Assembly (NCBI GenBank): GCA_964454175.1
Contig: CAYVSA010000021.1
Span: forward strand, 1 to 23,995
DNA: 23,995 bases
Source of the DNA: an uncultured Pseudomonadota bacterium
GTDB lineage: Bacteria > BMS3Abin14
Direction: 5' to 3'
Under the pieces are notes generated by a model. That model saw only the letters and a program-made list of their open reading frames with translations, did no database searches and had not been told where the DNA came from. Positions 3,916 to 21,287 of this stretch are shown here, piece after piece. Both the position numbers and the translations under genes were made by a program. Within the stretch, counting starts at the first letter, position 1, and every line of letters starts with the position of its first letter.

Positions 3916-4929
3916 TTGTTCTCATCCGCATCTGTAAAACAAGCTGTACTGACTCTGGGCGCTGCTGCCGCCCTGATGCTCTTTGCACAGGGTGCGTCAG
4001 GGTCAATCACATGCAGCCAGTGTCACGGCGCCTGGATCGACCATGTGTCCACTCGGAGCGTGCTGCACTCCCCTTTTGCTGGAGAGGAATGTGAATCGTG
4101 TCATCGCGACCACGGTAAGACCAACGAGCTGACCCTCACATCCGAATCAACTGAACTGTGTCTGGGCTGTCACCTGAGCCCGGGGGATGGCTCCCTGGCC
4201 CATGTACCGGATAAGAAAGCCTGCCTGTCGTGCCACGATCCCCACGGCTCACGTGGGCCTGGCCTGACCAGAAAACCTTTTACCGATCTTTGCCTGGAGT
4301 GTCACGGCACCGTTGTGAAGGCATCTTACGTCCACAGGGCGCTTTCCGAAAAAGGATGCGGTGAATGTCACACTCCCCACAGTTCGAGTTTCGGGATGCT
4401 GTTGAAATCTGAACAGTCGAAGATCTGTAACAGCTGCCACGCTGTGCTGAACGGTGAAGAGAATGCTCATACAGCCCTTGTGGAATACAGTTGTACAGGC
4501 TGCCATGACCCGCACTCCTCAACAGAGTACCGGCTCCTGAAAGATGTATACGATGACAGGCTGTTTCCAGGCGCCTACAGCCAGGACAAATACAGTCTTT
4601 GTTTTAAATGTCACGACACCTTCCTGGTAACGGGAAAAGATGCCAGCGATACCCGGTTCAGGAACGGCGAGGTGAACCTTCACACCGTGCATGTTGTGGG
4701 TACCGTCCGGTACGAGGGAAAAGGACTGACTTTGTGGGGGAGATCGAGATCATGTGCCAATTGCCACGACCCTCACGGGGCAGTTGGGCCCTTTGACCTG
4801 AAAAAGTATATCGCCTGTACTGAAACTGTGTGCAGGACCCTCACATTCTTTCCGGAGCCGCAGGGAGGCAGGTGCCTTGTCGACTGTCACAAGAGTGCTT
4901 CCTACAACCGCGGCCCGATCCAGCCGTGA
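3916..4929 (+). CDS. Periplasmic multiheme c-type cytochrome (10 CXXCH + 1 CX3CH)
   Basis: CSQCH, CESCH, CLGCH, CLSCH, CLECH, CGECH, CNSCH, CTGCH, CFKCH, CANCH and CLVDCH; N-terminal hydrophobic signal; CHxPH paired-heme repeats. TTG start uncertain. Confidence 0.9.
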   Translation: MFSSASVKQAVLTLGAAAALMLFAQGASGSITCSQCHGAWIDHVSTRSVLHSPFAGEECESCHRDHGKTNELTLTSESTELCLGCHLSPGDGSLAHVPDKKACLSCHDPHGSRGPGLTRKPFTDLCLECHGTVVKASYVHRALSEKGCGECHTPHSSSFGMLLKSEQSKICNSCHAVLNGEENAHTALVEYSCTGCHDPHSSTEYRLLKDVYDDRLFPGAYSQDKYSLCFKCHDTFLVTGKDASDTRFRNGEVNLHTVHVVGTVRYEGKGLTLWGRSRSCANCHDPHGAVGPFDLKKYIACTETVCRTLTFFPEPQGGRCLVDCHKSASYNRGPIQP

Positions 4930-5051
4930 TACTACCCTGGCAAACATAAAACATCTGCAGCAGCCATGGCCCGCCTTGCGGAGCTCTCTTGATAATGATG
5001 TAAGTCCTTGATCTAAAAGTCATAAAGAGGGTTGTCCGGGAAAATTACAGC

Positions 5052-5080
5052 TTGACATAAAGTCTGGTGTCTGGTAGCAA
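5052..5080 (+). promoter_or_regulatory. Possible sigma70 promoter for the second cytochrome
   Basis: TTGACA 5052-5057, 17-nt spacer ending TGG, weak -10 TAGCAA. Confidence 0.35.
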
Positions 5081-5172
5081 ATCCCAGTTTGTTTGATCAC
5101 CGATGGTTTTTTTCAGGACGGCTGAGCCGGGTTCTCCGGGACCGGTGAATTCAGTCGTACCGTGAGGTTTTT

Positions 5173-6183
5173 ATGTCAATAATCACCAGAGTGCTGACTC
5201 TGTGCGCAGCGGCCGTCATTCTGCTGTTTTCATCTACTGCATGGAGCCAGTGCTCAAAGTGTCATGAGGACTGGACCAGAAGCCTGCAGCAGAACAAGAT
5301 CATACACTCCGCCCTGGAGGACGATGGGTGCGAGGACTGTCACGATGATCACGGTGATAATGGCCGCCTGGTCCTGGTAGAAGACGGGAACAACCTGTGT
5401 CTCCAGTGCCATGACGGTCCAGAAGACGGTGCATCGGTCCACGAAGCACTGTCAGATGGTGACTGTACCGACTGCCACGATCCTCACGGCTCAAACAACA
5501 GTTCGCTGCTGGTAGAAACCCTGCCTGAGCTGTGCTTCCAATGTCACGATGACCCTGGTCAGGGAAAGTCTGTCCACGAGGTTGTGTCAGACGGAAGCTG
5601 TACCGACTGCCACGATCCTCACGCTTCAAAAAACAGTGCTCTTCTGGTGGAGGGAACACCGGGCCTGTGCCTTCAGTGCCATGATGTGCCGGAAAACCCC
5701 GGCAGCAAAGCGCACACAGCACTAACCGAGGGAGACTGTACTGACTGCCACAGAGCCCACGCCTCTGAAGAACCTCGACTCCTGGTCGAGCACTACGAGA
5801 CAAAAAGGTTCCCGGGCACTTTCGTCGAGGAGATGTATTCGCTCTGCTTCCAGTGCCATGAAGCGGAACTGGTAACCGGTCCCGCCCGGAGCACCGGATT
5901 CCGAAGTGGTTCAAAAAACCTTCATAACCTCCATGTTATGGGTGAGCTGAAGCCCAACAAATACGGTATTGTCAGGAGAGGCAAGGCCCGGTCTTGTTCC
6001 ATCTGTCACCAGCCCCATGGCTCCGAACAGGGGTTTAACCTCGTGAAGGAGTACAGGCACAACGGTATCCTGTTCTTTGCCCTTGATTATACTCCCACCG
6101 AAAACGGGGGGCGCTGTGTCGTGGGGTGTCACAAACCGAGAAGCTACAGCAGGTCTGTCCCGCAGGCGGGGAAGGCCGATTGA
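5173..6183 (+). CDS. Periplasmic multiheme c-type cytochrome (10 CXXCH + 1 CX3CH), paralog of the upstream gene
   Basis: Signal peptide ending AWS; CSKCH, CEDCH, CLQCH, CTDCH, CFQCH, CTDCH, CLQCH, CTDCH, CFQCH, CSICH, CVVGCH; SD GAGG; internal repeats of about 45 aa. Confidence 0.93.
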   Translation: MSIITRVLTLCAAAVILLFSSTAWSQCSKCHEDWTRSLQQNKIIHSALEDDGCEDCHDDHGDNGRLVLVEDGNNLCLQCHDGPEDGASVHEALSDGDCTDCHDPHGSNNSSLLVETLPELCFQCHDDPGQGKSVHEVVSDGSCTDCHDPHASKNSALLVEGTPGLCLQCHDVPENPGSKAHTALTEGDCTDCHRAHASEEPRLLVEHYETKRFPGTFVEEMYSLCFQCHEAELVTGPARSTGFRSGSKNLHNLHVMGELKPNKYGIVRRGKARSCSICHQPHGSEQGFNLVKEYRHNGILFFALDYTPTENGGRCVVGCHKPRSYSRSVPQAGKAD

Positions 6184-10472: not shown

Positions 10473-10985
10473 GTGACAGGGGAAAAACACCCATACGTTC
10501 AACTCGCACACAGGACCATCCTGGAGTTTGTTCGTGCAGGGAAGAGGCCGGCCCCGCCGCGCGAGCTGGTCTCGGCTGGCCAGGCCGGGGTTTTTGTAAG
10601 CCTCAAAACAGGCGGAAGGCTTCGGGGATGTATCGGGACAATTAATCCCGTCCATGAAAATCTTGCCGAAGAGATCATCGAAAATGCTGTGAGCGCTGCC
10701 ACCAGGGACCCGCGGTTCGCACCCGTCTCCCCTGAGGAACTGGACAGTCTCGACGTCTCGGTGGATGTCCTGACGCCCCCTGAACCGGTAGCTGACAGAT
10801 CAGACCTTGACGCTGCCAGATTCGGTGTCATAGTCAAGAGCAGGGGACTTACAGGGGTTCTGCTGCCCGATCTCGCCGGTGTCGACACCGTGGATGAGCA
10901 GCTCGACATTGCCAGAAAAAAAGCAGGCATAGGCCCTGATGAGAACTTTGAGATCTACCGGTTCGAGGTCAAGAGGTTTCGATGA
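10473..10985 (+). CDS. AMMECR1-domain protein (AmmeMemoRadiSam protein A type)
   Basis: GVFVSLK, LRGCIGT, AATRDPRF, SVDVL, GVLLPDL. Confidence 0.92.
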   Translation: MTGEKHPYVQLAHRTILEFVRAGKRPAPPRELVSAGQAGVFVSLKTGGRLRGCIGTINPVHENLAEEIIENAVSAATRDPRFAPVSPEELDSLDVSVDVLTPPEPVADRSDLDAARFGVIVKSRGLTGVLLPDLAGVDTVDEQLDIARKKAGIGPDENFEIYRFEVKRFR

Positions 10986-12385
10986 TCAGCACTGAACCTA
11001 CAGCTGAAAACCTGTTCAGCCTCCTTGTTGTGGACGATGAGGCCAGCGTCAGGGAGTCCCTCGAGCTTCTCCTTGAGGAGAGCTACAGGGTTTTCAAGGC
11101 TGCCGACGCGCTCGAGGCCCTCTCAAGGATAGAGGACGACGAGGTCGATCTTGTGATCCTGGACGTTACAATGCCGGGGATGGACGGCATGGAAACCTTG
11201 AGCCGCATCATGGAGCAGCCCTTTCCCCCTGAAGTTGTCATGCTCTCGGCAACGGACAGCGCCAGGCTGGGTATCCAGGCGGTAAAGGAGGGCGCCTACG
11301 ACTACATCGCCAAGCCTTTTGACAAGGAGGAGCTGCAGGAGGTGATCCGCAAGGCCCTCAGGAGGAGGAGCCTGGAGCGGGAGGTAACATTCCTCCGGAC
11401 GGAAGTAGATAAGCTCGGAGGATTTGGGGACATCGTTGGTATGTCACCCGTTATGATCGAGCTTTTCAGGATAATAGACAAGGTGGCCCAGACCGACACA
11501 AGCGTGCTCATAACAGGGGAGAGTGGGACCGGTAAGGAGCTCGTTGCCAGGGCGATCTACTCCAGGAGCCAGAGGAAAAAGGGCCCCTTCATACCTATTA
11601 ACTGCGCCGCCATCCCGCGGGAGCTCCTGGAAAGCGAATTCTTCGGCCACGAGAAGGGTGCGTTTACCAGCGCGCACAGCAGGAAGACGGGCAAGCTTGA
11701 GCTGGCAAACGGCGGCATTTTTTTCCTGGATGAGATCTCCACCCTCCAGCTGGAGCTTCAGGCAAAGCTTCTCAGGGTCCTTCAGGAAAGGGAGTTCATG
11801 CGGGTTGGCGGTGAACAGCAGATCCGGGTGGATGTTCAGGTTATAGCTGCCACGAACCAGGACCTGTCCGCGATGGTAAAAGCGGGAAAATTTCGGGAAG
11901 ACCTCTTTTACAGGCTCAACGTCATACCTATAATCCTGCCGCCCCTGCGTGACAGGAAACAGGACGTTCCTTTGCTTGTGAGGCACTTTTTGGATCTTTT
12001 ATGCGCGCGGTTGAGCAAAAAAACGCCAAAGGTTTCTCCCGAAGCCATGAAGGTCCTCAAATCCTATCACTGGCCTGGCAACGCCAGGGAACTTGAAAAT
12101 CTTCTTGAGCGGCTCGTAGTCCTCCTGCCGGAAGGCTCGGTGATCCAGGTTCAGGACCTCCCAATGGAGATAACGGTTGCCGGCAAGATCTCCGAGGCCG
12201 GTTCTGGCCCTGTTTCTGACGGTCTGCTGTCTGCCAGGGACCGTTTCGAAAAGATGTACATCCTGTCGGCCCTCAGGCGGGCCGGATGGAATCAGTCTGA
12301 GGCCGCCAAGCTACTGAAAGTTCACAGAAATACGCTCACCAAGAAAATATCCGCACTGGGGATAATTATACCTGAACAGCAGTAG
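10982..12385 (+). CDS. Sigma54-dependent response regulator (receiver, AAA+, Fis-type HTH; NtrC/AtoC family)
   Basis: LLVVDDE, LDVTMPGMDG, YIAKPF; GESGTGKE, NCAAIP, GHEKGAFTSA, FLDEI, FREDLFYRLNV, WPGNARELEN; HTH NQSEAAKLLKVHRNTLTKKI. ATGA overlap with the AMMECR1 gene. Confidence 0.95.
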   Translation: MISTEPTAENLFSLLVVDDEASVRESLELLLEESYRVFKAADALEALSRIEDDEVDLVILDVTMPGMDGMETLSRIMEQPFPPEVVMLSATDSARLGIQAVKEGAYDYIAKPFDKEELQEVIRKALRRRSLEREVTFLRTEVDKLGGFGDIVGMSPVMIELFRIIDKVAQTDTSVLITGESGTGKELVARAIYSRSQRKKGPFIPINCAAIPRELLESEFFGHEKGAFTSAHSRKTGKLELANGGIFFLDEISTLQLELQAKLLRVLQEREFMRVGGEQQIRVDVQVIAATNQDLSAMVKAGKFREDLFYRLNVIPIILPPLRDRKQDVPLLVRHFLDLLCARLSKKTPKVSPEAMKVLKSYHWPGNARELENLLERLVVLLPEGSVIQVQDLPMEITVAGKISEAGSGPVSDGLLSARDRFEKMYILSALRRAGWNQSEAAKLLKVHRNTLTKKISALGIIIPEQQ

Positions 12386-12404: not shown

Positions 12405-12422
12405 TGCACACGATCATGTGCA
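12405..12422. promoter_or_regulatory. Enhancer (UAS) palindrome 1, TGCACA-N6-TGTGCA
   Basis: TGCACACGATCATGTGCA; degenerate neighbour GGCACACACTTTTGAACT 20 bp upstream (12385-12402). Confidence 0.8.
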
Positions 12423-12486
12423 CATCCCCTATCTCACTGAATTAACAGTAAAATTCCACTGAAATCCATGTCAGCAGCAGTTACAC

Positions 12487-12504
12487 TGCACACGATCGTG
12501 TGCA
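12487..12504. promoter_or_regulatory. Enhancer (UAS) palindrome 2
   Basis: Perfect 18-bp palindrome TGCACACGATCGTGTGCA, about 110 bp upstream of the predicted sigma54 start site. Confidence 0.85.
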
Positions 12505-12578: not shown

Positions 12579-12594
12579 TGGCAAGAGTCTTGCT
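12579..12594 (+). promoter_or_regulatory. Sigma54 -24/-12 promoter of the small peptide gene
   Basis: TGGCAAGAGTCTTGCT: GG 12580-12581, exactly 10 nt, GC 12592-12593; matches TGGCAC-N5-TTGCW with one mismatch. Confidence 0.88.
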
Positions 12595-12646
12595 TCTTAA
12601 GGGTTAACAGTTGATCTGAAACCCATGTAATTAAAGGAGGCATGAA

Positions 12647-12742
12647 ATGAAGAGGATTATCGCTACGCTGACACTGACTGCTCTTACCGTTATCGGCCTG
12701 GCATCTGTGGCCCTGGCATGCGGGGGTGGTGGGGGCCTGTAA
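12647..12742 (+). CDS. 31-aa secreted-peptide precursor: MKRIIATLTLTALTVIGLASVALA-CGGGGGL
   Basis: SD AAAGGAGG (12633-12640) 6 nt before ATG; basic n-region MKR, hydrophobic h-region, A-L-A cleavage motif; TAA 12740-12742; own promoter and terminator. Shorter than any ORF in the track. Confidence 0.85.
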   Translation: MKRIIATLTLTALTVIGLASVALACGGGGGL

Positions 12743-12772
12743 GAGACATTTGCAGATCGTTCCGTTCCGGAT

Positions 12773-12799
12773 AAGGGGGAGCTTTTGCTCCCCCTTTGT
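12773..12799 (+). terminator. Intrinsic terminator-like hairpin after the peptide gene
   Basis: AAGGGGGAGC-TTTT-GCTCCCCCTT perfect 10-bp stem; short U tail (TTTGT), so read-through is possible. Confidence 0.8.
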
Positions 12800-12970
12800 G
12801 CGTTGAAGCAGTTTTCCTACCTATGCGCTGGTAAAAGACATTTATTTCAGATATAACTTCAATACCTGTTTAAATGGCAGTCTCAGAGTTTTAATTAGCC
12901 ATCAAAGTTGGATCGAATTACGCATCCGGGTTCCCTGGCTGTTCCCGGAGTTGTACGGAGCTGACATCTG

Positions 12971-14563
12971 ATGCAGCAAGCGCGTTTTTACACAGGGGCA
13001 CTCTCCCTGGTCCTGATAATATTTTTCACCTCCATCCTGTCTCTCTCTCCGGCAGAAGCGTCCGGTGTGTTCCGCTTCCCCCTTTTCTGGATAGCTTCGA
13101 CATTCGATCCGGTGTTTGATTCTTCCAACTCTATTTCCTACATAGCTCAGCAGGTTGGAGACGGTCTGGTTGCCTACGACAGGAACCTCAGGGTAATTCC
13201 CGGCCTGGCAAAAAGCTGGAGGGTCAGCAAGGACGGCAGGGAATACCTGTTCACCCTCAGGGACGGCGTCAAATTCCACAACGGCAAACCACTCACTGCT
13301 GATGATGTAGTTGCCTCCATCCTGAGGATCTTCAGGTCGGGCAAGCTGCCGGCACAGGGTATGTTTTTTGAGCGCATAGACGGAGCTTCGGAGCTCCTGG
13401 AGGGAAAGGCTGAAACACTTTCCGGTCTGGAAGCTGTTTCCGAGGGGGAGGTAAGGCTCCGGCTCGCCGAGCCCTATGCGCCCTTTTTGTCCTCCCTGGC
13501 CACGCCCCTTGCCAAGATAATCCCCGCCAATCTCGCCAGGGATACCACCGGAATGTACGGCAGACATCCCGTTGGCACGGGCCCTTTCGTTTTTGTCTCT
13601 GCAGACGAGAAGGAGATCATCCTCAGGGCCAACCCGGATTATTTCAGCGGCCCCCCAAAGTTGGACGAGATCCGCTTTGTGCTTTACAGGGGTGGTGACA
13701 GGGACAAAGCTTTTACCGACTTCAAGGAGGGACGACTCGAAGGCGCGCCCCTTCCCGGGTCCGTCGATCCGGCACAGCTTCGCAAAACAGGCTTCAATGT
13801 GATCTCCAGGCCGCGCCTCTCAATGATGTTCTACGGCATGAATGTAAAAGTCCCGCCGTTCGACAACCCGGATCTGAGGATGGCCCTGGCCCTTGGGACC
13901 GACAGAAAAACAAACGTCAGTAAAAAACTGGGAGGCAGCCACTTTCCGGCCAACCAGATACTGCCCCCCGGCATGCCGGGATACACGCCGGACAACGCCC
14001 TCCTTAAGTATGATCCAAAAAAGGCCGCCAGGCTCCTTGAAAAAGCTGGTTATCCACAGGGCAGAGGCCTCGAGGACCTGAATCTGGCCTCGGCTTCTCA
14101 CTCCAACTTCGCAGTCAGGGAACTGGAGCTTTTCGCAGCTGACATGGCCAGGCTTGGTGTAAAAGTGAGCCCTGTTTTTGTGGACAGCTGGGATGAGTTC
14201 AAAAAAGGTGTTGTTGAAGGCAAATATCCGCTCTTCAGGTATGCCTGGTACGCTGACGCACCTTCACCCGATGATTTCATGGCGCCCCTTTTTGAGACCG
14301 GATCCAGCGCGAACCTGACCCACTTCAGCCGTCATGATGTGGACAGTCTCCTGGAGAAAGCCAGGAAGGAGATAGATCCGGCAAAACGTGCCGGGCTTTA
14401 TAGAAAGGCAGAGAGTACTGTTCTGAATGATGCTCCAGTTATACCCCTCCTGTTCATCTCCACCCAGGCTGTCTTCCAGGCCTGGGTTCATGGCATAGAC
14501 CTTCCTGCCATCGGAAGTCCATACATGCCCCTCAGGCAAGTATCGGTAAGGGGCGCTCCCTGA
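12971..14563 (+). CDS. Family 5 (OppA/DppA-like) periplasmic solute-binding protein; no cognate permease in the window
   Basis: Signal peptide ending AEA; PGLAKSWRVSKDGREYLFTLRDGVKFHNGKPLTADDV signature, PVGTGPF, PPFDNPDLRMAL, YDPKKAARLLEKAGY, DAPVIPL. Confidence 0.93.
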   Translation: MQQARFYTGALSLVLIIFFTSILSLSPAEASGVFRFPLFWIASTFDPVFDSSNSISYIAQQVGDGLVAYDRNLRVIPGLAKSWRVSKDGREYLFTLRDGVKFHNGKPLTADDVVASILRIFRSGKLPAQGMFFERIDGASELLEGKAETLSGLEAVSEGEVRLRLAEPYAPFLSSLATPLAKIIPANLARDTTGMYGRHPVGTGPFVFVSADEKEIILRANPDYFSGPPKLDEIRFVLYRGGDRDKAFTDFKEGRLEGAPLPGSVDPAQLRKTGFNVISRPRLSMMFYGMNVKVPPFDNPDLRMALALGTDRKTNVSKKLGGSHFPANQILPPGMPGYTPDNALLKYDPKKAARLLEKAGYPQGRGLEDLNLASASHSNFAVRELELFAADMARLGVKVSPVFVDSWDEFKKGVVEGKYPLFRYAWYADAPSPDDFMAPLFETGSSANLTHFSRHDVDSLLEKARKEIDPAKRAGLYRKAESTVLNDAPVIPLLFISTQAVFQAWVHGIDLPAIGSPYMPLRQVSVRGAP

Positions 14564-14576
14564 CGGCAGGGTTGAA

Positions 14577-16403
14577 ATGGGCCGTACCACTCTTCAGAAA
14601 AAACTAACATTCCTGTTCGGAGCCATAATTGTAGCTGTCGTTCTGACGGTGGGGGGGATATCTGTCTACCATGCCAGGGACCTTCTCATAGAGCAGGCAA
14701 GGAGGACTGGGACTGCTCTGGCGGGCAGTATCGCAGCCGCATCTTCCAACGATTTTTTCAACTACAACTACGTCGGGCTTGAGCAAAAAGCTGAGGAAGC
14801 AAGCCGCGATCCCGAGGTAGCCTACGTTATCCTTTACGATAAAGAGGGGAAGGTGGCCGCTTATTCCGGGCAGGGCTCTGCTGAAAGCCGGTCTGCGCCT
14901 GAAAACCTGGAACCGGCCCTGACAGCAACAGGCAATACCCTTATCTCCGGAGGTCTCATGGAGGGTTTTTCCGGACGGGGCCTCGATATCATCGTATCAG
15001 TCACCATGGACGAAGGCGGCAGCGCGTGGGGCAGCGTACGCCTGGGCCTGAGGCTTGACCGGATCTACAACAGGATTACGCTGCTGACATGGCTTGTCTT
15101 CTTCCTGTGTCTTGCCGGTATTCTGGTTGGCGCGGCGGCATCGGCAGTTTTTACCAGGCGCATAACAGTACCGCTAAAGAACCTGGTTGACGCGGCAGTG
15201 CAGGTTTCGGAGGGGGAATTCGAGACCCGGATCCGGGTTAAGACCGGTGATGAAGTCCAGGACCTTGCCGACAACTTCAACTGGATGGTAAGCCAGCTTG
15301 CGCAGCAGCGCAGCAGCCTCGAGGAGAATCTCCGGGAAATAAAGCGGCTCAAGCACTACAGCGATCTGGTTATCCTTTCAATAACCAACGGTCTCGTCAC
15401 AATGGGGAGTGACGGGGAAATAATCTCCTTTAACAGGATGGCCGAAAGTATCCTCGACGCACCAGCTGAGGATGTTCTCGGCAGAACACCGACCCAGGTG
15501 TGGGGCAGCCAGGCGGCCGTGGCCGTGATGGAGGCTGCACCGGGCGGCGGCGGGACCCCCAGAGAGGATGAAGTGAGGTGGGTCACATCGGATGGCCAGG
15601 AGCGCACTCTCCAGATGACGACCACCGATATACAGGAGGGGGACGGTACTACGGTTGGACGCCTGGCACTCATTTCCGATCTCACAGAGAAAAAGGAGCT
15701 TGAAAAGCGGGTGAAACGGGCTGACCGCCTGGCCGCCCTGGGCACCCTGGCAGCGGGCTTGGCCCACGAGATAAGGAACCCCCTGACAGCCATCAGGACT
15801 TTTGTGCAGCTCGTACCGGAAAGACATGAAAACTCACTTTTCATGGACAAGTTTAACAGGACCGTTCCCCGGGAGCTTGACCGGGTCAACAACCTCCTCG
15901 AAGATCTCCTCGATCTGGTTCGAAAGCCGACGTTAAACATTACTCAAATCAGGCTGAAAGACTGTGTTGACCATGTTCTGGACACTCTGGGACCCGAGAT
16001 AGACAAGAGGGGTGTGGATGTCCAGGTGAACTTTACAGGTGGGTCCGGTTCTGTCAGGGCGGACATGGACTATCTGACGAGGGCAATGTTCAACGTGATC
16101 CTTAACGCGGTCCAGGCCATGCCTCAGGGCGGCTCACTCCGCATCAGTTCGGAAAGAAATGCCCAGCAGGGAGAGCCCGAGGCAGAAGTCATAACCATTT
16201 CCGATGATGGTTTCGGGATCCCGGACGAATACCTTGATGAGGTTTTTAACCCTTTCTTTACCAACAAGGACAAGGGAACCGGACTTGGGCTGGCCGTTAC
16301 AAACAAGATAATTGAGGATCTTGGCGGCTCCATCTCGGTTCAAAGTGAAAGGGGCAGAGGAACAGATTTCACGATAAGCCTGCCAGTTTTCGAACCGCAC
16401 TGA
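14577..16403 (+). CDS. Membrane sensor histidine kinase (TM, periplasmic domain, TM, HAMP, PAS, HisKA, HATPase)
   Basis: Two TM segments; HAMP (ITVPLKNL...GDEVQDLADNFNWM); PAS (FNRMAESIL); H-box LAHEIRNPL; NVILNAVQAM, DDGFGIP, FNPFFTNK, GTGLGL; starts 13 nt after the binding-protein stop. Confidence 0.95.
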   Translation: MGRTTLQKKLTFLFGAIIVAVVLTVGGISVYHARDLLIEQARRTGTALAGSIAAASSNDFFNYNYVGLEQKAEEASRDPEVAYVILYDKEGKVAAYSGQGSAESRSAPENLEPALTATGNTLISGGLMEGFSGRGLDIIVSVTMDEGGSAWGSVRLGLRLDRIYNRITLLTWLVFFLCLAGILVGAAASAVFTRRITVPLKNLVDAAVQVSEGEFETRIRVKTGDEVQDLADNFNWMVSQLAQQRSSLEENLREIKRLKHYSDLVILSITNGLVTMGSDGEIISFNRMAESILDAPAEDVLGRTPTQVWGSQAAVAVMEAAPGGGGTPREDEVRWVTSDGQERTLQMTTTDIQEGDGTTVGRLALISDLTEKKELEKRVKRADRLAALGTLAAGLAHEIRNPLTAIRTFVQLVPERHENSLFMDKFNRTVPRELDRVNNLLEDLLDLVRKPTLNITQIRLKDCVDHVLDTLGPEIDKRGVDVQVNFTGGSGSVRADMDYLTRAMFNVILNAVQAMPQGGSLRISSERNAQQGEPEAEVITISDDGFGIPDEYLDEVFNPFFTNKDKGTGLGLAVTNKIIEDLGGSISVQSERGRGTDFTISLPVFEPH

Positions 16404-16407
16404 TTTG

Positions 16408-16444
16408 TGCACACGAATGTGTGCACTGCACATGATCATGTGCA
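16408..16444. promoter_or_regulatory. Tandem enhancer palindromes 3 and 4 (same TGCACA-N6-TGTGCA motif)
   Basis: TGCACACGAATGTGTGCA (16408-16425) and perfect TGCACATGATCATGTGCA (16427-16444), 19-bp period. Confidence 0.85.
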
Positions 16445-16467
16445 GCTATGCCGCTGTTGTATGCCTG

Positions 16468-16480
16468 TAACCTCTTGAAT
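16468..16480. promoter_or_regulatory. IHF-like site between enhancer and sigma54 promoter
   Basis: TAACCTCTTGAAT versus consensus YAANNNNTTGATW, one mismatch. Confidence 0.5.
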
Positions 16481-16507
16481 TTACAGAAAACATACTCTTT
16501 CCATTTC

Positions 16508-16523
16508 TGGCCTGTTTCTTGCT
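16508..16523 (+). promoter_or_regulatory. Sigma54 -24/-12 promoter upstream of the two receiver genes
   Basis: TGGCCTGTTTCTTGCT: GG 16509-16510, 10 nt, GC 16521-16522. Confidence 0.8.
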
Positions 16524-16631
16524 GATCAACACCCTGAGGAATTTTCACAGAAGCTGAATCCCTGTGCGTATTGTCTGATCAACACAGTGCGTGGCAGGGT
16601 CGGGGTGCAATATTTGGAAGGAGGCGAATTA

Positions 16632-16997
16632 ATGGATAAGAAAGTCCTGCTCGTAGTTGATGACAGTGTGGGGATTGTCGAGAGCATGAACGTTCTGTTC
16701 AGCGACGATTTTGAAGTGTTTTCTGCAGCCACCGTTACCGAGGCACTGGGTATTTTGGAAAAGATACAGCCGGATATGATCCTTCTTGACTACCTGATGC
16801 CCGGTTTAAATGGGGTTCACCTTTTGCGGGAGATCCGGCAGATGAAAATGGCGTCCAAGGTCATTCTGGTCACCGCGTCAGTTTGGGAGGGAGTTAAAGA
16901 GGAGGTCATGAGTCTGGGCGTAGATGGTTTCGTCCGAAAACCTTTTGACATATGGGAGCTCGAGGCCATTGCAAGGGGTATTCTTGCTGTAGCCTGA
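16632..16997 (+). CDS. Single-domain response regulator (receiver only)
   Basis: MDKKVLLVVDD, LLDYLMPGLNG, VTAS, FVRKPF; SD AAGGAGG supports ATG 16632. Confidence 0.9.
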   Translation: MDKKVLLVVDDSVGIVESMNVLFSDDFEVFSAATVTEALGILEKIQPDMILLDYLMPGLNGVHLLREIRQMKMASKVILVTASVWEGVKEEVMSLGVDGFVRKPFDIWELEAIARGILAVA

Positions 16998-17093
16998 GCG
17001 GTTCATGTTTGACAGGTGCTTGGTTGGGGGACCGGATAGTGCAGCATTACTTTGAATTCACTTTAGATGCCTGGGACATCTTGGGAGATCTTG

Positions 17094-17498
17094 ATGAAGT
17101 ACAGCATCCTGGACAAAAAAGAATACTGCAAAGGCAGGAAGGTGCTTATAGTCGATGACAATCCGGATGTTCTTTGGCTCCTTGACGACCTGTTGAAGCG
17201 GAGCCTGGAAGTTCAGGTTGCTACTGCGGAAAATGGTAAAATTGCACTGGAAACAGCAAGAGAAGTCCAGCCGGACCTTATCCTCATGGACCTTATGATG
17301 CCCGTCATGAACGGTCTGGAAGCTATACAAGAGATAAAGGGCGATGAGAATCTCAGCAGTGTACCTGTTCTGGCTTTTACCGCACTCATTAACACCTTCC
17401 AGCGGGATGAGGTCATGGAGCATGGCTTTGAGGAATGCCTTGAAAAGCCTCTTGATTTTGACGAACTGAAGAATATGGTTTTCAGGTACCTTACCTGA
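17094..17498 (+). CDS. Single-domain response regulator (receiver only)
   Basis: KVLIVDDN, LMDLMMPVMNG, FTA, LEKPL; GGGAG before ATG 17094 (17067 is the alternative start). Confidence 0.88.
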   Translation: MKYSILDKKEYCKGRKVLIVDDNPDVLWLLDDLLKRSLEVQVATAENGKIALETAREVQPDLILMDLMMPVMNGLEAIQEIKGDENLSSVPVLAFTALINTFQRDEVMEHGFEECLEKPLDFDELKNMVFRYLT

Positions 17499-20027: not shown

Positions 20028-21287
20028 TTAGCTTTCCCGGGAAAGCTTTTCCATCTTCCTGGCAGCTTCGGTAAAAGAAGGGTTTATTTCCAGGGCCCGG
20101 TTGTAGGACTCGGATGCCTGGTCAACTTTGCCAAGTGCTGCCAGGACGTCCCCCCTCAGGCAAAGGGCGTCTGCAAACTGCGAATTGTCAGCAAGAATTA
20201 TTTCCAGTTCCTCAAAGGCCCTGGAATAATCGTCCGTTTTGATGTATGCCCTTGCCAGGTCAAGGCGCGCGTCGGTCAGGTCCGGGTTCAGGGTAAGGGC
20301 CCGCTTCAGCTCCAGAACAGCTTCCTGGAAGTTCCCCAGTTTTAACAGGGTTTTGCCGAACATGGCCACGAGGTCAGGCCACTGTGGGTTTTTGCCTATA
20401 AGTCTTCTCATTATATCGGCGGCTTCGGAGTAAAGTCCATCCCTCACCATGGCCGAAGCGAGGACCATCTCACCATCAGCCACATCAGGCAGATTCTTTA
20501 ACTCCATCCTCCTGCTGGACCCCAGCATCCAGATGGCAAGCCCGAAAAACAGGGCCATTGCCAGCATTGACGCGATCAGCCCTGGCAGGAATGAACCGAT
20601 CCTTTTTAATGAATCGGTCTTTTCAATATTTTCGCCAGCGCTTCTTTTGGGATTGATGATAGAGCTTATATTCAGGAAACTGGCCAGTTCGCCGATGTCC
20701 CTGCTCTCTGGTTCGGGAGGTAAAAATTCTGTGATGCTGAACGAGGCAAGTTCAATTTTTCTCTCGTCGTTCTGCAGCGCCAGGATACCCACACCGGGAG
20801 CAAGCCATATGTAACCCTGGTAGATGGGGTCAGAAACCTTCCTGTAGCCGATTTTGAAGGTCCCCGGATAGTAACCCGCCGGGACCGTGTAGTTGACCCT
20901 GTCCATAACCGTGAAGGACATGGGCTCCTCGCCCCACGGGGAGATCCACGTATCACCTTCGTGAAGGGGCAGCCTGAGAAGGAGGGTGGGAACTGCCGGT
21001 GTGTCCTCAAGGGGGTTTCCTGGCAGTACGTCGAATCTGTATAGTGAGTCTTTGGTCCGTAAAAAATAAAAAGGTTTCTTCAAGCCGGTGATCATTTCGC
21101 TGAAGGTGATCCCCGACACTGTGAGAGTACGGTTCACCATAAGAGATTCGCCGCCGCTTGTGTCGCTTGTGTAGATCCAGTGACTGCCAGGGTTAAGGGG
21201 GAATACATCGGTAGTCGCCGTAACGACGGCTGGTTCAATGGCTGAGATTGCAAGGATAAAAAATATAGTGTGTAATAGGCGAAGCAT
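20028..21287 (-). CDS. Membrane-anchored tetratricopeptide-repeat protein with exported N-terminal domain
   Basis: Signal peptide; FPLNPGSHWIY...TVPAG...WLAPGVG beta-rich domain; central TM; C-terminal TPRs (ELKRALTLNPD, YNRALEINPSF). Confidence 0.8.
   Translation of the reverse strand: MLRLLHTIFFILAISAIEPAVVTATTDVFPLNPGSHWIYTSDTSGGESLMVNRTLTVSGITFSEMITGLKKPFYFLRTKDSLYRFDVLPGNPLEDTPAVPTLLLRLPLHEGDTWISPWGEEPMSFTVMDRVNYTVPAGYYPGTFKIGYRKVSDPIYQGYIWLAPGVGILALQNDERKIELASFSITEFLPPEPESRDIGELASFLNISSIINPKRSAGENIEKTDSLKRIGSFLPGLIASMLAMALFFGLAIWMLGSSRRMELKNLPDVADGEMVLASAMVRDGLYSEAADIMRRLIGKNPQWPDLVAMFGKTLLKLGNFQEAVLELKRALTLNPDLTDARLDLARAYIKTDDYSRAFEELEIILADNSQFADALCLRGDVLAALGKVDQASESYNRALEINPSFTEAARKMEKLSRES

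Follow-up and report, generated by a model that had tools for sequence, protein, structure and literature searches.

A conserved 31-codon gene in a predicted sigma-54-dependent sensor module encodes a signal-peptide-like product, possibly a novel type of bacterial signalling peptide

Introduction

What does a bacterium do with a gene of 31 codons whose product looks like a signal peptide almost to its last residue? Small proteins of fewer than 50 amino acids are usually missed by annotation, and the micro-gene considered here lies in a stretch of 23,995 nucleotides (the window) from an uncultured bacterium of the GTDB lineage BMS3Abin14 (contig CAYVSA010000021.1, assembly GCA_964454175.1). An earlier note, made from the letters of the window, had described it as a complete mini transcription unit whose Sec-type product would leave the heptapeptide CGGGGGL after cleavage by signal peptidase I (SPI) or, alternatively, a tiny lipopeptide. 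Regarding the setting of the gene, the idea of a unit of its own has stood, but the note had overlooked the surrounding module of a response regulator, a solute-binding protein (SBP) and a sensor kinase, which is the main clue to function.

Results

Mapping the features of the locus (Table 1), we found the open reading frame exactly as claimed, running from an ATG at 12647 to a TAA at 12740–12742 behind a GGAGG Shine-Dalgarno sequence and encoding MKRIIATLTLTALTVIGLASVALACGGGGGL with its seven-residue tail; the relatives have GGAG(G) or AGGAG upstream of their starts. Comparison of 11 ungapped genes (55 pairs) gave a mean pS of 0.68 and a mean pN of 0.26, and the variable columns at codon positions 1, 2 and 3 number 22, 14 and 29 of 31, a pattern by which the reading frame is conserved. 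The varied glycine codons of the tail (GGG GGT GGT GGG GGC, in order) had been taken to speak against a slippage artefact, and the relatives bear this out: all four glycine codons are in use across the 11 aligned genes, and such synonymous variation excludes slippage or misassembly as the source of the G-run. Together, pS, pN and the codon-position pattern indicate constraint on the protein and not on a G-rich RNA, and by these codon statistics the frame is judged to be a real gene under protein-level selection. The reading as a truncated remnant of a longer protein, which the earlier note had named as a way in which it could fail, is excluded as well, since none of 13 matching representative proteins and no genomic or metagenomic locus continues past the stop. 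In the genome itself, tblastn of the peptide found no paralog; the only near match (C87) corresponds to the first part of an ordinary lipoprotein whose linker is CGGGGG.

Table 1. Features of the micro-gene locus, in coordinates of the window
Feature	Position	Strand	Remarks
NtrC/AtoC-like sigma-54-dependent response regulator	10982..12385	+	receiver + AAA+ + HTH
Enhancer site 1 (predicted)	12405..12422	.	palindrome TGCACACGATCATGTGCA; kept ahead of the peptide gene in relatives
Enhancer site 2 (predicted)	12487..12504	.	palindrome TGCACACGATCGTGTGCA; 82 bp from site 1, 74 bp before the promoter
Sigma-54 promoter (predicted)	12579..12594	+	TGGCAAGAGTCTTGCT; -24 GG, -12 GC; TGGCAA-N5-TTGCT
Shine-Dalgarno sequence	12636..12640	+	GGAGG; 6 nt 5' of the ATG
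Micro-gene, 31 codons	12647..12742	+	MKR, 20 uncharged residues, Ala24, tail CGGGGGL
Intrinsic-terminator-like hairpin	12773..12804	+	from folding; 10 bp, loop of 4, short T-tract; stem 12773–12796
Family-5 (DppA/OppA-like) SBP	12971..14563	+	own signal peptide; PF00496, E 8.1e-86
Sensor histidine kinase, AtoS-like	14577..16403	+	TM, sCache_3_2, TM, HAMP, PAS, HisKA, HATPase
Second palindrome pair	16408..16444	.	16408–16425 and 16427–16444; directly after the kinase gene
Second sigma-54-like promoter	16508..16523	+	TGGCCTGTTTCTTGCT; read from the sequence
CheY-like single-domain receiver	16632..16997	+	PF00072, E 3e-23

Forty-one distinct peptides define the anatomy of the family, 34 of them with 31 residues, six with 30 and one with 29; one extra member of 33 residues, with a longer n-region, was missed by the extraction pattern and stands outside the 41. 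Every peptide starts with M1 and K2 followed by K or R, giving MK[KR] in 41/41, and positions 4–24 are uncharged, with hydroxyl residues (Thr/Ser) favoured at positions 7, 9, 14, 17 and 20. Alanine is found at position 12 in 35 of the 41, at position 19 in 39 and at position 24 in all, the last being fixed by the extraction pattern; Ala24 is also invariant in the 12-genome alignment. Position 22 (-3) is V, L, I or A throughout (31, 4, 4 and 2 peptides), position 23 is L, F or M, and the entropies at positions 19, 23 and 24 are 0.28, 0.65 and 0. The tail that follows has seven residues in 34 peptides, six in six and five in one, and is 67% glycine. Its first residue (+1) is never Pro but S in 10, N in 8, C in 8, G in 7, D in 6 and H and A in one each; its last is P in 16, L in 13, I in 9 and F, G and N in one each. 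Cysteine at +1 is found in 4 of the 12 phylum genomes.

By the -3/-1 rule of von Heijne for signal peptidase, together with the charge of the n-region, the uncharged h- and c-regions and the absence of Pro at +1, the product looks like a Sec/SPI signal peptide in every sequence feature, followed by a very short glycine tail. The Sec-type signal with a seven-residue remainder that had been proposed thus fits, with Ala at -1 and V/L/I/A at -3 in 41/41. The source genome encodes BamA and LepB, which indicates a diderm cell with a periplasm.

The hydrophobic part is more alike among relatives than a signal peptide would ordinarily be. Over the same 18 loci (152 pairs), residues 1–24 have a mean pairwise identity of 0.54; in the signal peptide of the SBP itself, the corresponding value for the last 24 residues is 0.24, and the first 100 mature residues of the SBP are 69% identical. 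Conservation beyond that of an ordinary signal peptide points to a sequence-specific role for residues 1–24. Tail ends, which the earlier note had suggested comparing for signs of pherotypes, do vary between close relatives, one identical 24-mer carrying CGGGGGI, CGGGGGP and SGGGGGI, with the counting bias that only distinct peptides were compared, so that pairs identical in residues 1–24 necessarily differ in the tail.

A dedicated promoter had been claimed for the micro-gene, and a conserved promoter-like element does precede it. A sigma-70 promoter scan ahead of the micro-gene found none, and the promoter is for this reason taken not to be of the sigma-70 type; it matches a sigma-54 promoter with enhancer sites, which had been overlooked. 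By itself this match is not significant, with two occurrences in the window against 0.92 expected and two reached by 26 of 100 shuffles. The form TGGCA[AG]-N5-TTGCT is kept in 12/12 related genomes that have the region on a contig, and the transcript start predicted near 12605 fits a sigma-54 start. The two 18-nt palindromes upstream share the form TGCACACGATC[A/G]TGTGCA. TGCACA-N6-TGTGCA has four copies in the window and none in 100 shuffles; the whole 2.17-Mb genome holds eight, always paired, and in eight loci 74–76 bp separate the second palindrome from the promoter. All four palindromes of the complete genome G002 are in one locus, one ahead of the regulator gene, two ahead of the peptide gene and one ahead of the CheY-like gene, which suggests that the module is largely self-contained. 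With rpoN present in the source genome, the locus has by sequence the GG-N10-GC elements, the activator sites and the cognate enhancer-binding protein of a sigma-54 system, and the micro-gene is predicted to be a conserved enhancer-dependent target of the neighbouring two-component system.

Downstream of the stop, the GC-rich hairpin folds at -28.8 kcal/mol (z = -2.13; a fold as stable is reached by 8 of 200 shuffles), and a consensus terminator scan did not call it because its T-tract, CTTTGTGCGTT, is short. A GC-rich hairpin lies 3' of the stop in 12/12 genomes, with unrelated stem sequences, and in this the complete mini transcription unit of the earlier note is recovered, conserved at both ends. 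In 9/12 genomes a TTGACA-N17/18-GA[AT]GAT-like promoter stands between the hairpin and the SBP gene, and there the micro-gene would therefore be its own unit. The source window has only a TTGTAC variant, too near the SBP start to serve the SBP; this variant and the weak T-tract suggest read-through into the SBP and kinase genes here, and the hairpin is probably leaky in the source genome. A scan of the window with Rfam at gathering thresholds gave 0 matches.

The locus order of regulator, two palindromes, sigma-54 promoter, micro-gene, hairpin, SBP and kinase is the same in every genome or metagenome locus whose contig extends far enough. The regulator matches the AtoC (E 7.5e-139) and NtrC (E 7.8e-137) models below their equivalog cut-offs, and is thus placed at family level only. 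The nearest solved relatives of the SBP are peptide-binding (DppA, SBPs of peptide ABC transporters and HbpA), and it matches DppA (E 3e-50) better than NikA (E about 1e-27). In alignment with E. coli DppA, D408, which we take to be the alpha-amino binder, is retained as D429 and is invariant in six orthologs, and R355, presumably the dipeptide carboxylate cap, is replaced by Ala. SBP and kinase genes are separated by 13 nt, and the sCache_3_2 domain of the kinase is periplasmic. No ABC permease or ATPase genes are found in the window or in the G002 locus; adjacent SBP and kinase genes of this transporter-less kind, as in an SBP-dependent sensor kinase, are also seen in the metagenome loci. 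Beyond the kinase, the G002 equivalent of the second sigma-54-like promoter, TGGTTCGATTCTTGCT, precedes the CheY-like gene, which is predicted to be a second local target of the regulator. A TPR protein is encoded at 20028–21287 on the other strand, 7 kb off and outside the conserved module.

The genome collection for the lineage comprises 16 genomes of the phylum, all of one family. A search for SBP orthologs in the other 15 revealed the same small reading frame between the same promoter and the SBP gene, and a peptide profile has exactly one strong match (E 1e-13 to 2e-18) in 12/16. Two genomes of one genus, G001 and G009, have neither micro-gene nor SBP ortholog, and in G001, which has no palindrome at all, palindrome, SBP ortholog and peptide are missing together. 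One genome (G015, 71% complete) gives no strong match, and in another (G006) the contig stops 9 nt into the micro-gene.

Searched against 1.84 billion representative proteins, the profile has only 13 matches at E <= 1e-3, all with alignments that end at the C-terminus or at most three residues from it; four longer entries among them are upstream start-codon calls. A further 21 loci came from a pattern scan over metagenome contigs; all encode a 30–31-aa member, although the pattern itself required a palindrome-promoter unit ahead of the peptide gene. An SBP gene follows the peptide gene in at least 15 of these 21, and five others end within about 300 nt; one contig holds two tandem micro-gene copies. 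The palindrome and sigma-54 architecture is found at 60 loci in a species-level genome collection, and the peptide gene at only seven of them (six complete, one cut by the contig end), all in this phylum. Among the remaining 53, most bear the label Desulfobacterales or relatives, and the genes downstream are different. These distributions indicate that the regulator family is widespread, whereas the micro-gene appears lineage-specific as far as pattern-limited searches can see.

The peptide has no match in Pfam and only sub-threshold noise in NCBIfam (E 0.13–0.16), and a protein atlas returned best feature scores of 0.81–0.83 for unnamed clusters only, with no lead. In open-access text we found no account of the peptide family and no gene-encoded peptide/SBP/kinase loop in diderms; the palindrome is absent from the main text of PMC4641369.

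Discussion

Across a poorly known candidate phylum, a gene of 31 codons appears to be conserved as the inducible target of an entire sensor module, and the function of a whole signalling system would depend on it. Its product, we conclude, probably signals back to the sensor system beside it and may represent a form of signalling peptide new to bacteria. Release and sensing of the tail would make this one of the few instances of ribosomal peptide signalling in outer-membrane bacteria, with an unusually minimal signal; if the peptide remains in the membrane, it would be a new class among the micro-proteins that modulate kinases.

Release of a heptapeptide by SPI, as the earlier note had inferred, is in our judgement the single most likely mechanism. 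The phosphorylated NtrC-like regulator would bind the two palindromes and activate the sigma-54 promoter, producing a transcript of about 190 nt that would end at the hairpin, although in the source genome some transcription would run on into the SBP and kinase genes. The 31-aa product would enter the inner membrane through MK[KR] and its hydrophobic segment, and SPI, as we infer, would cleave after Ala24 to leave 5–7 residues of the form X-Gly(4-5)-Φ (here CGGGGGL) in the periplasm. The freed tail would be a ligand or competing ligand of the adjacent transporter-less DppA-like SBP, which would pass its state to the Cache histidine kinase and so close an autoregulatory loop of putative sign. 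The full chain, in which an SPI-released X-Gly5-Φ (Φ = P, L, I or F) is sensed by the SBP-kinase pair in a feedback loop, is held tentatively, with appreciable but minority confidence.

What favours release and sensing of the tail is that the -3/-1 pattern fits all members, that the tail length is fixed, that the candidate receptor is a peptide-type SBP keeping the presumed alpha-amino-binding Asp, that tail ends differ on identical residues 1–24 (among distinct peptides only), and that one contig holds tandem copies. The strongest point against it is the identity of residues 1–24, which exceeds that of the SBP signal peptide at the same loci. It is further weakened because the Cys variants have a lipobox-compatible context and might be lipidated and not free, because a glycine run holds little information for a specific ligand, and because family-5 SBPs also bind non-peptide ligands, as CBP with ChiS. 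A complex prediction of SBP (31–530), kinase (1–200) and peptide gave a score of 0.02 and a mark of 0.32 in a run without controls, and we count it on neither side of the question of binding. In an extended form, peptide quorum sensing in a diderm, a heptapeptide of about 0.5 kDa released by SPI, whose small size and flexibility would let it pass porins, would be sensed from outside by the SBP, the Cache kinase and the sigma-54 regulator, with autoinduction, CheY-like outputs and variable +1 and last residues as lineage pherotypes; we consider this rather unlikely.

The same identity of residues 1–24 lends weight to two readings in which the hydrophobic part is the active one. The product may stay uncleaved in the inner membrane as one helix, N-terminus in and glycine tail out, and modulate its own kinase by helix-helix contact in the manner of MgrB or SafA. 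Its 21 uncharged residues suffice to span a membrane, its Thr/Ser positions and Ala12, Ala19 and Ala24 are conserved, and variation of the +1 Cys would be neutral; PMC8404706 describes the precedent, MgrB, a membrane protein of 47 aa that belongs to the PhoP regulon and acts as an inhibitor of PhoQ. This reading leaves unexplained the fixed length of the Gly4-5 tail and its P/L/I end, the -3/-1 fit in all 41 and the constant peptide-type SBP partner, and the 31-mer resembles no small-protein family known to Pfam or NCBIfam; on balance we regard it as somewhat improbable, though deserving serious weight. Alternatively, a membrane protease may free a pheromone of about [TS][WL]A[TS][VI]VLA from the signal peptide once SPI, or signal peptidase II (SPII) in the Cys variants, has cut after Ala24, the SBP binding this fragment. 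Conservation does peak in MK[KR] and residues 19–24, the +1 variation among Cys, Ser, Asn and Asp becomes irrelevant, a frame that is nearly all signal peptide is accounted for, and the enterococcal receptor PrgZ belongs to the SBP superfamily (4faj_A, E 6.9e-21, one of 53 matches). Set against this are an extra protease or release step for which the locus has no dedicated gene and a strict glycine run that would be mere stuffer, a poor fit with its conservation; the mechanism is, to our knowledge, known only from Firmicutes, and we think it unlikely here.

Other readings take the loop or the peptide out of the account. An output effector without feedback, which might be membrane-active and depolarise as TisB does or, as an oligoglycine, chelate Ni/Cu for a NikA/DppA-like SBP, would suit a product that is small, hydrophobic and tightly controlled by induction. 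Oligoglycines are chelators of Cu(II) and Ni(II), some family-5 SBPs bind nickel or metallophores, and +1 is often a donor residue (C/D/N/S/H in 33/41); but neither an antitoxin nor an antisense feature came to light, the SBP is nearer to DppA than to NikA, and +1 is Gly in 7/41, and such a role seems to us distinctly unlikely. A glycine-codon leader peptide, functionless in itself, whose Gly-tRNA sensing would govern termination at the hairpin and so the SBP-kinase operon, is suggested by 4–5 Gly codons just 5' of the stop, a hairpin 24–50 nt downstream and the SBP and kinase genes beyond. Attenuation would call for alternative folding and an unconstrained peptide, and the locus offers neither: amino-acid selection extends along the entire peptide, from MK[KR] through the hydrophobic segment to the tail, synonymous changes have shuffled the Gly codons, folding that takes in these codons still has the terminator in its energy minimum, with no alternative pairing, at 12/12 loci, and the SBP gene has its separate TTGACA promoter in 9/12 relatives, all of which makes this reading very improbable. 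As to the lipopeptide, diacylglyceryl-Cys-Gly5-Leu, the general lipobox rule in relaxed form is fitted by [VAI]-L-A-C in the source peptide and seven other distinct peptides. The invariant +1 Cys of a lipoprotein matured by SPII is lacking, only 8/41 distinct peptides having it and the others S, N, G, D, H or A, and identical residues 1–24 occur with Cys or Ser at +1. Because the cysteine is not conserved, the family is not one of lipoproteins, and the earlier note's alternative is refuted as a family trait and scarcely credible for the product at large; any role that needs an N-terminal Cys, such as a disulfide dimer or thiol chemistry, loses its support with the same count.

By sequence or by defining parts, the 31-mer family belongs to none of the systems with which we compared it. 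In function it stands nearest to small proteins that are induced by a regulator and act back on its kinase (MgrB, SafA), to Sec-exported propeptides of the Phr type and to sensor kinases coupled to an SBP (LuxPQ, CBP-ChiS). MgrB and SafA are alike in tiny size and a single hydrophobic segment, and they share a layout in which the gene is under the response regulator of the system acted on, forming a self-contained feedback loop. Sequence similarity and family membership (Pfam, NCBIfam) are lacking, and the 31-mer differs in its sigma-54 promoter with enhancers, in the constant SBP of its module and in an extracytoplasmic part of only 5–7 mostly glycine residues that fits the -3/-1 rule. ZraP is a periplasmic accessory protein whose expression depends on sigma-54 and which acts back on the two-component system that governs it, ZraSR. 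There too an NtrC-type regulator of the system and a sigma-54 promoter drive a small envelope protein beside the sensor genes, but ZraP itself is a folded protein of about 140 aa in the periplasm, without similarity to the 31-mer.

Phr and PapR, of the RRNPP systems of Firmicutes, are Sec-exported propeptides whose C-terminal 5–7 residues are the signal. They resemble the 31-mer in joining a signal peptide to a short C-terminal peptide and in the involvement of a family-5 (Opp-type) binding protein, but their peptides are imported and bind cytoplasmic TPR receptors, whereas the 31-mer is from a diderm, is shorter, has no pro-region and has an SBP paired with a membrane kinase; at the locus, neither a TPR receptor nor a permease gene stands beside the peptide gene. 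The sex pheromones of enterococci, which derive from the signal peptides of lipoproteins and are bound by PrgZ, are similar in that the conserved part is a signal peptide and the candidate receptor is of the OppA family. Their precursors are full-length lipoproteins, whereas the mature part of the 31-mer is a glycine stub, and its detection would be periplasmic, through the kinase. In LuxPQ-LuxO the response regulator, LuxO, is sigma-54-dependent. LuxP-LuxQ-LuxO and CBP-ChiS both place a transporter-less SBP gene beside a membrane sensor kinase, as found here, and differ in their ligands, AI-2 and chitin oligosaccharides, which are not peptides encoded by the same locus; according to PMC12704726, CBP is a periplasmic binding protein that controls ChiS.

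Other palindrome targets in the same genome

Beyond the pair that precedes the peptide gene, TGCACA-N6-TGTGCA palindromes occur in pairs at several other sites of the source genome, one of them in the window (see the table). There, a gene for a CheY-like single-domain receiver is driven by the second palindrome pair and a predicted sigma-54-like promoter, and this gene and the receiver gene that comes after it may provide the system with a phosphate sink or with a branch for its output. The pairs on contigs C27 and C124 are each so close to a contig end (about 100-200 nt) that their target genes are missing from the assembly; on C27 the pair is followed by TGGCTCGATTTTTGCT.

Features in the window, in the source genome (G000) and in related loci
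Feature	Position	Remarks
Two multihaem cytochrome genes	window 3916-6183	upstream; Paired_CXXCH, MtrC/MtrF-like domains
CTGAAA[T/C]CCATGT, 13-nt direct repeat	window 12459-12471 and 12616-12628	two copies
Second palindrome pair, sigma-54-like promoter, CheY-like receiver	window 16408-16997	promoter 16508-16523
Second receiver gene	window 17067-17498	after the CheY-like gene
Two additional palindrome pairs	C27:26918-27046 and C124:81-120	G000 contigs
GCT[T/A]GGGG	between stop codon and terminator	example loci L008, L010, L013, L016, L018, L023

Sequence elements around the promoter and terminator

One copy of the 13-nt repeat sits between both enhancer palindromes and the other in the 5' UTR, immediately 5' of the Shine-Dalgarno sequence; the UTR copy is found in the related genome G006 too. 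The repeat may be a site for a second regulator or an IHF-like site. Past the stop codon of the peptide gene, GCT[T/A]GGGG stands 5' of the terminator hairpin in 11 of the 31 distinct downstream regions of related loci, and it is absent from the window.

Among loci that have the same palindrome and sigma-54 architecture without the glycine-tailed peptide, four (L036, L038, L067 and L086, contigs of MAGs labelled Desulfobacterales) have in common a short TTG-initiated ORF, LKI[RL]R..AL.., located 23-53 nt 3' of the promoter, which could be a conserved leader or merely conserved RNA.

Copy number and neighboring genes

On one metagenome contig, two copies of the peptide gene stand in tandem (L100:1-250, minus strand), separated by a 38-nt spacer with its own GGAGG, the second copy being interrupted by the contig end. 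Two further contigs break at most 10 nt from the start of the peptide gene: G006:C37 at its end (L002:1765-1773) and G014:C613 at its start (L018:1-103). Tandem copies that assembly failed to resolve may be frequent in the glycine-tailed peptide family.

In the G007 ortholog of the solute-binding protein (L009:448-1974), just 11 residues separate the apparent start from the conserved G-V-F-R-F-P-L-F motif that follows, and a signal peptide is not recognizable, which may reflect a start-codon problem, an assembly problem or a real loss. The two multihaem cytochrome genes suggest that the organism is capable of extracellular electron transfer.
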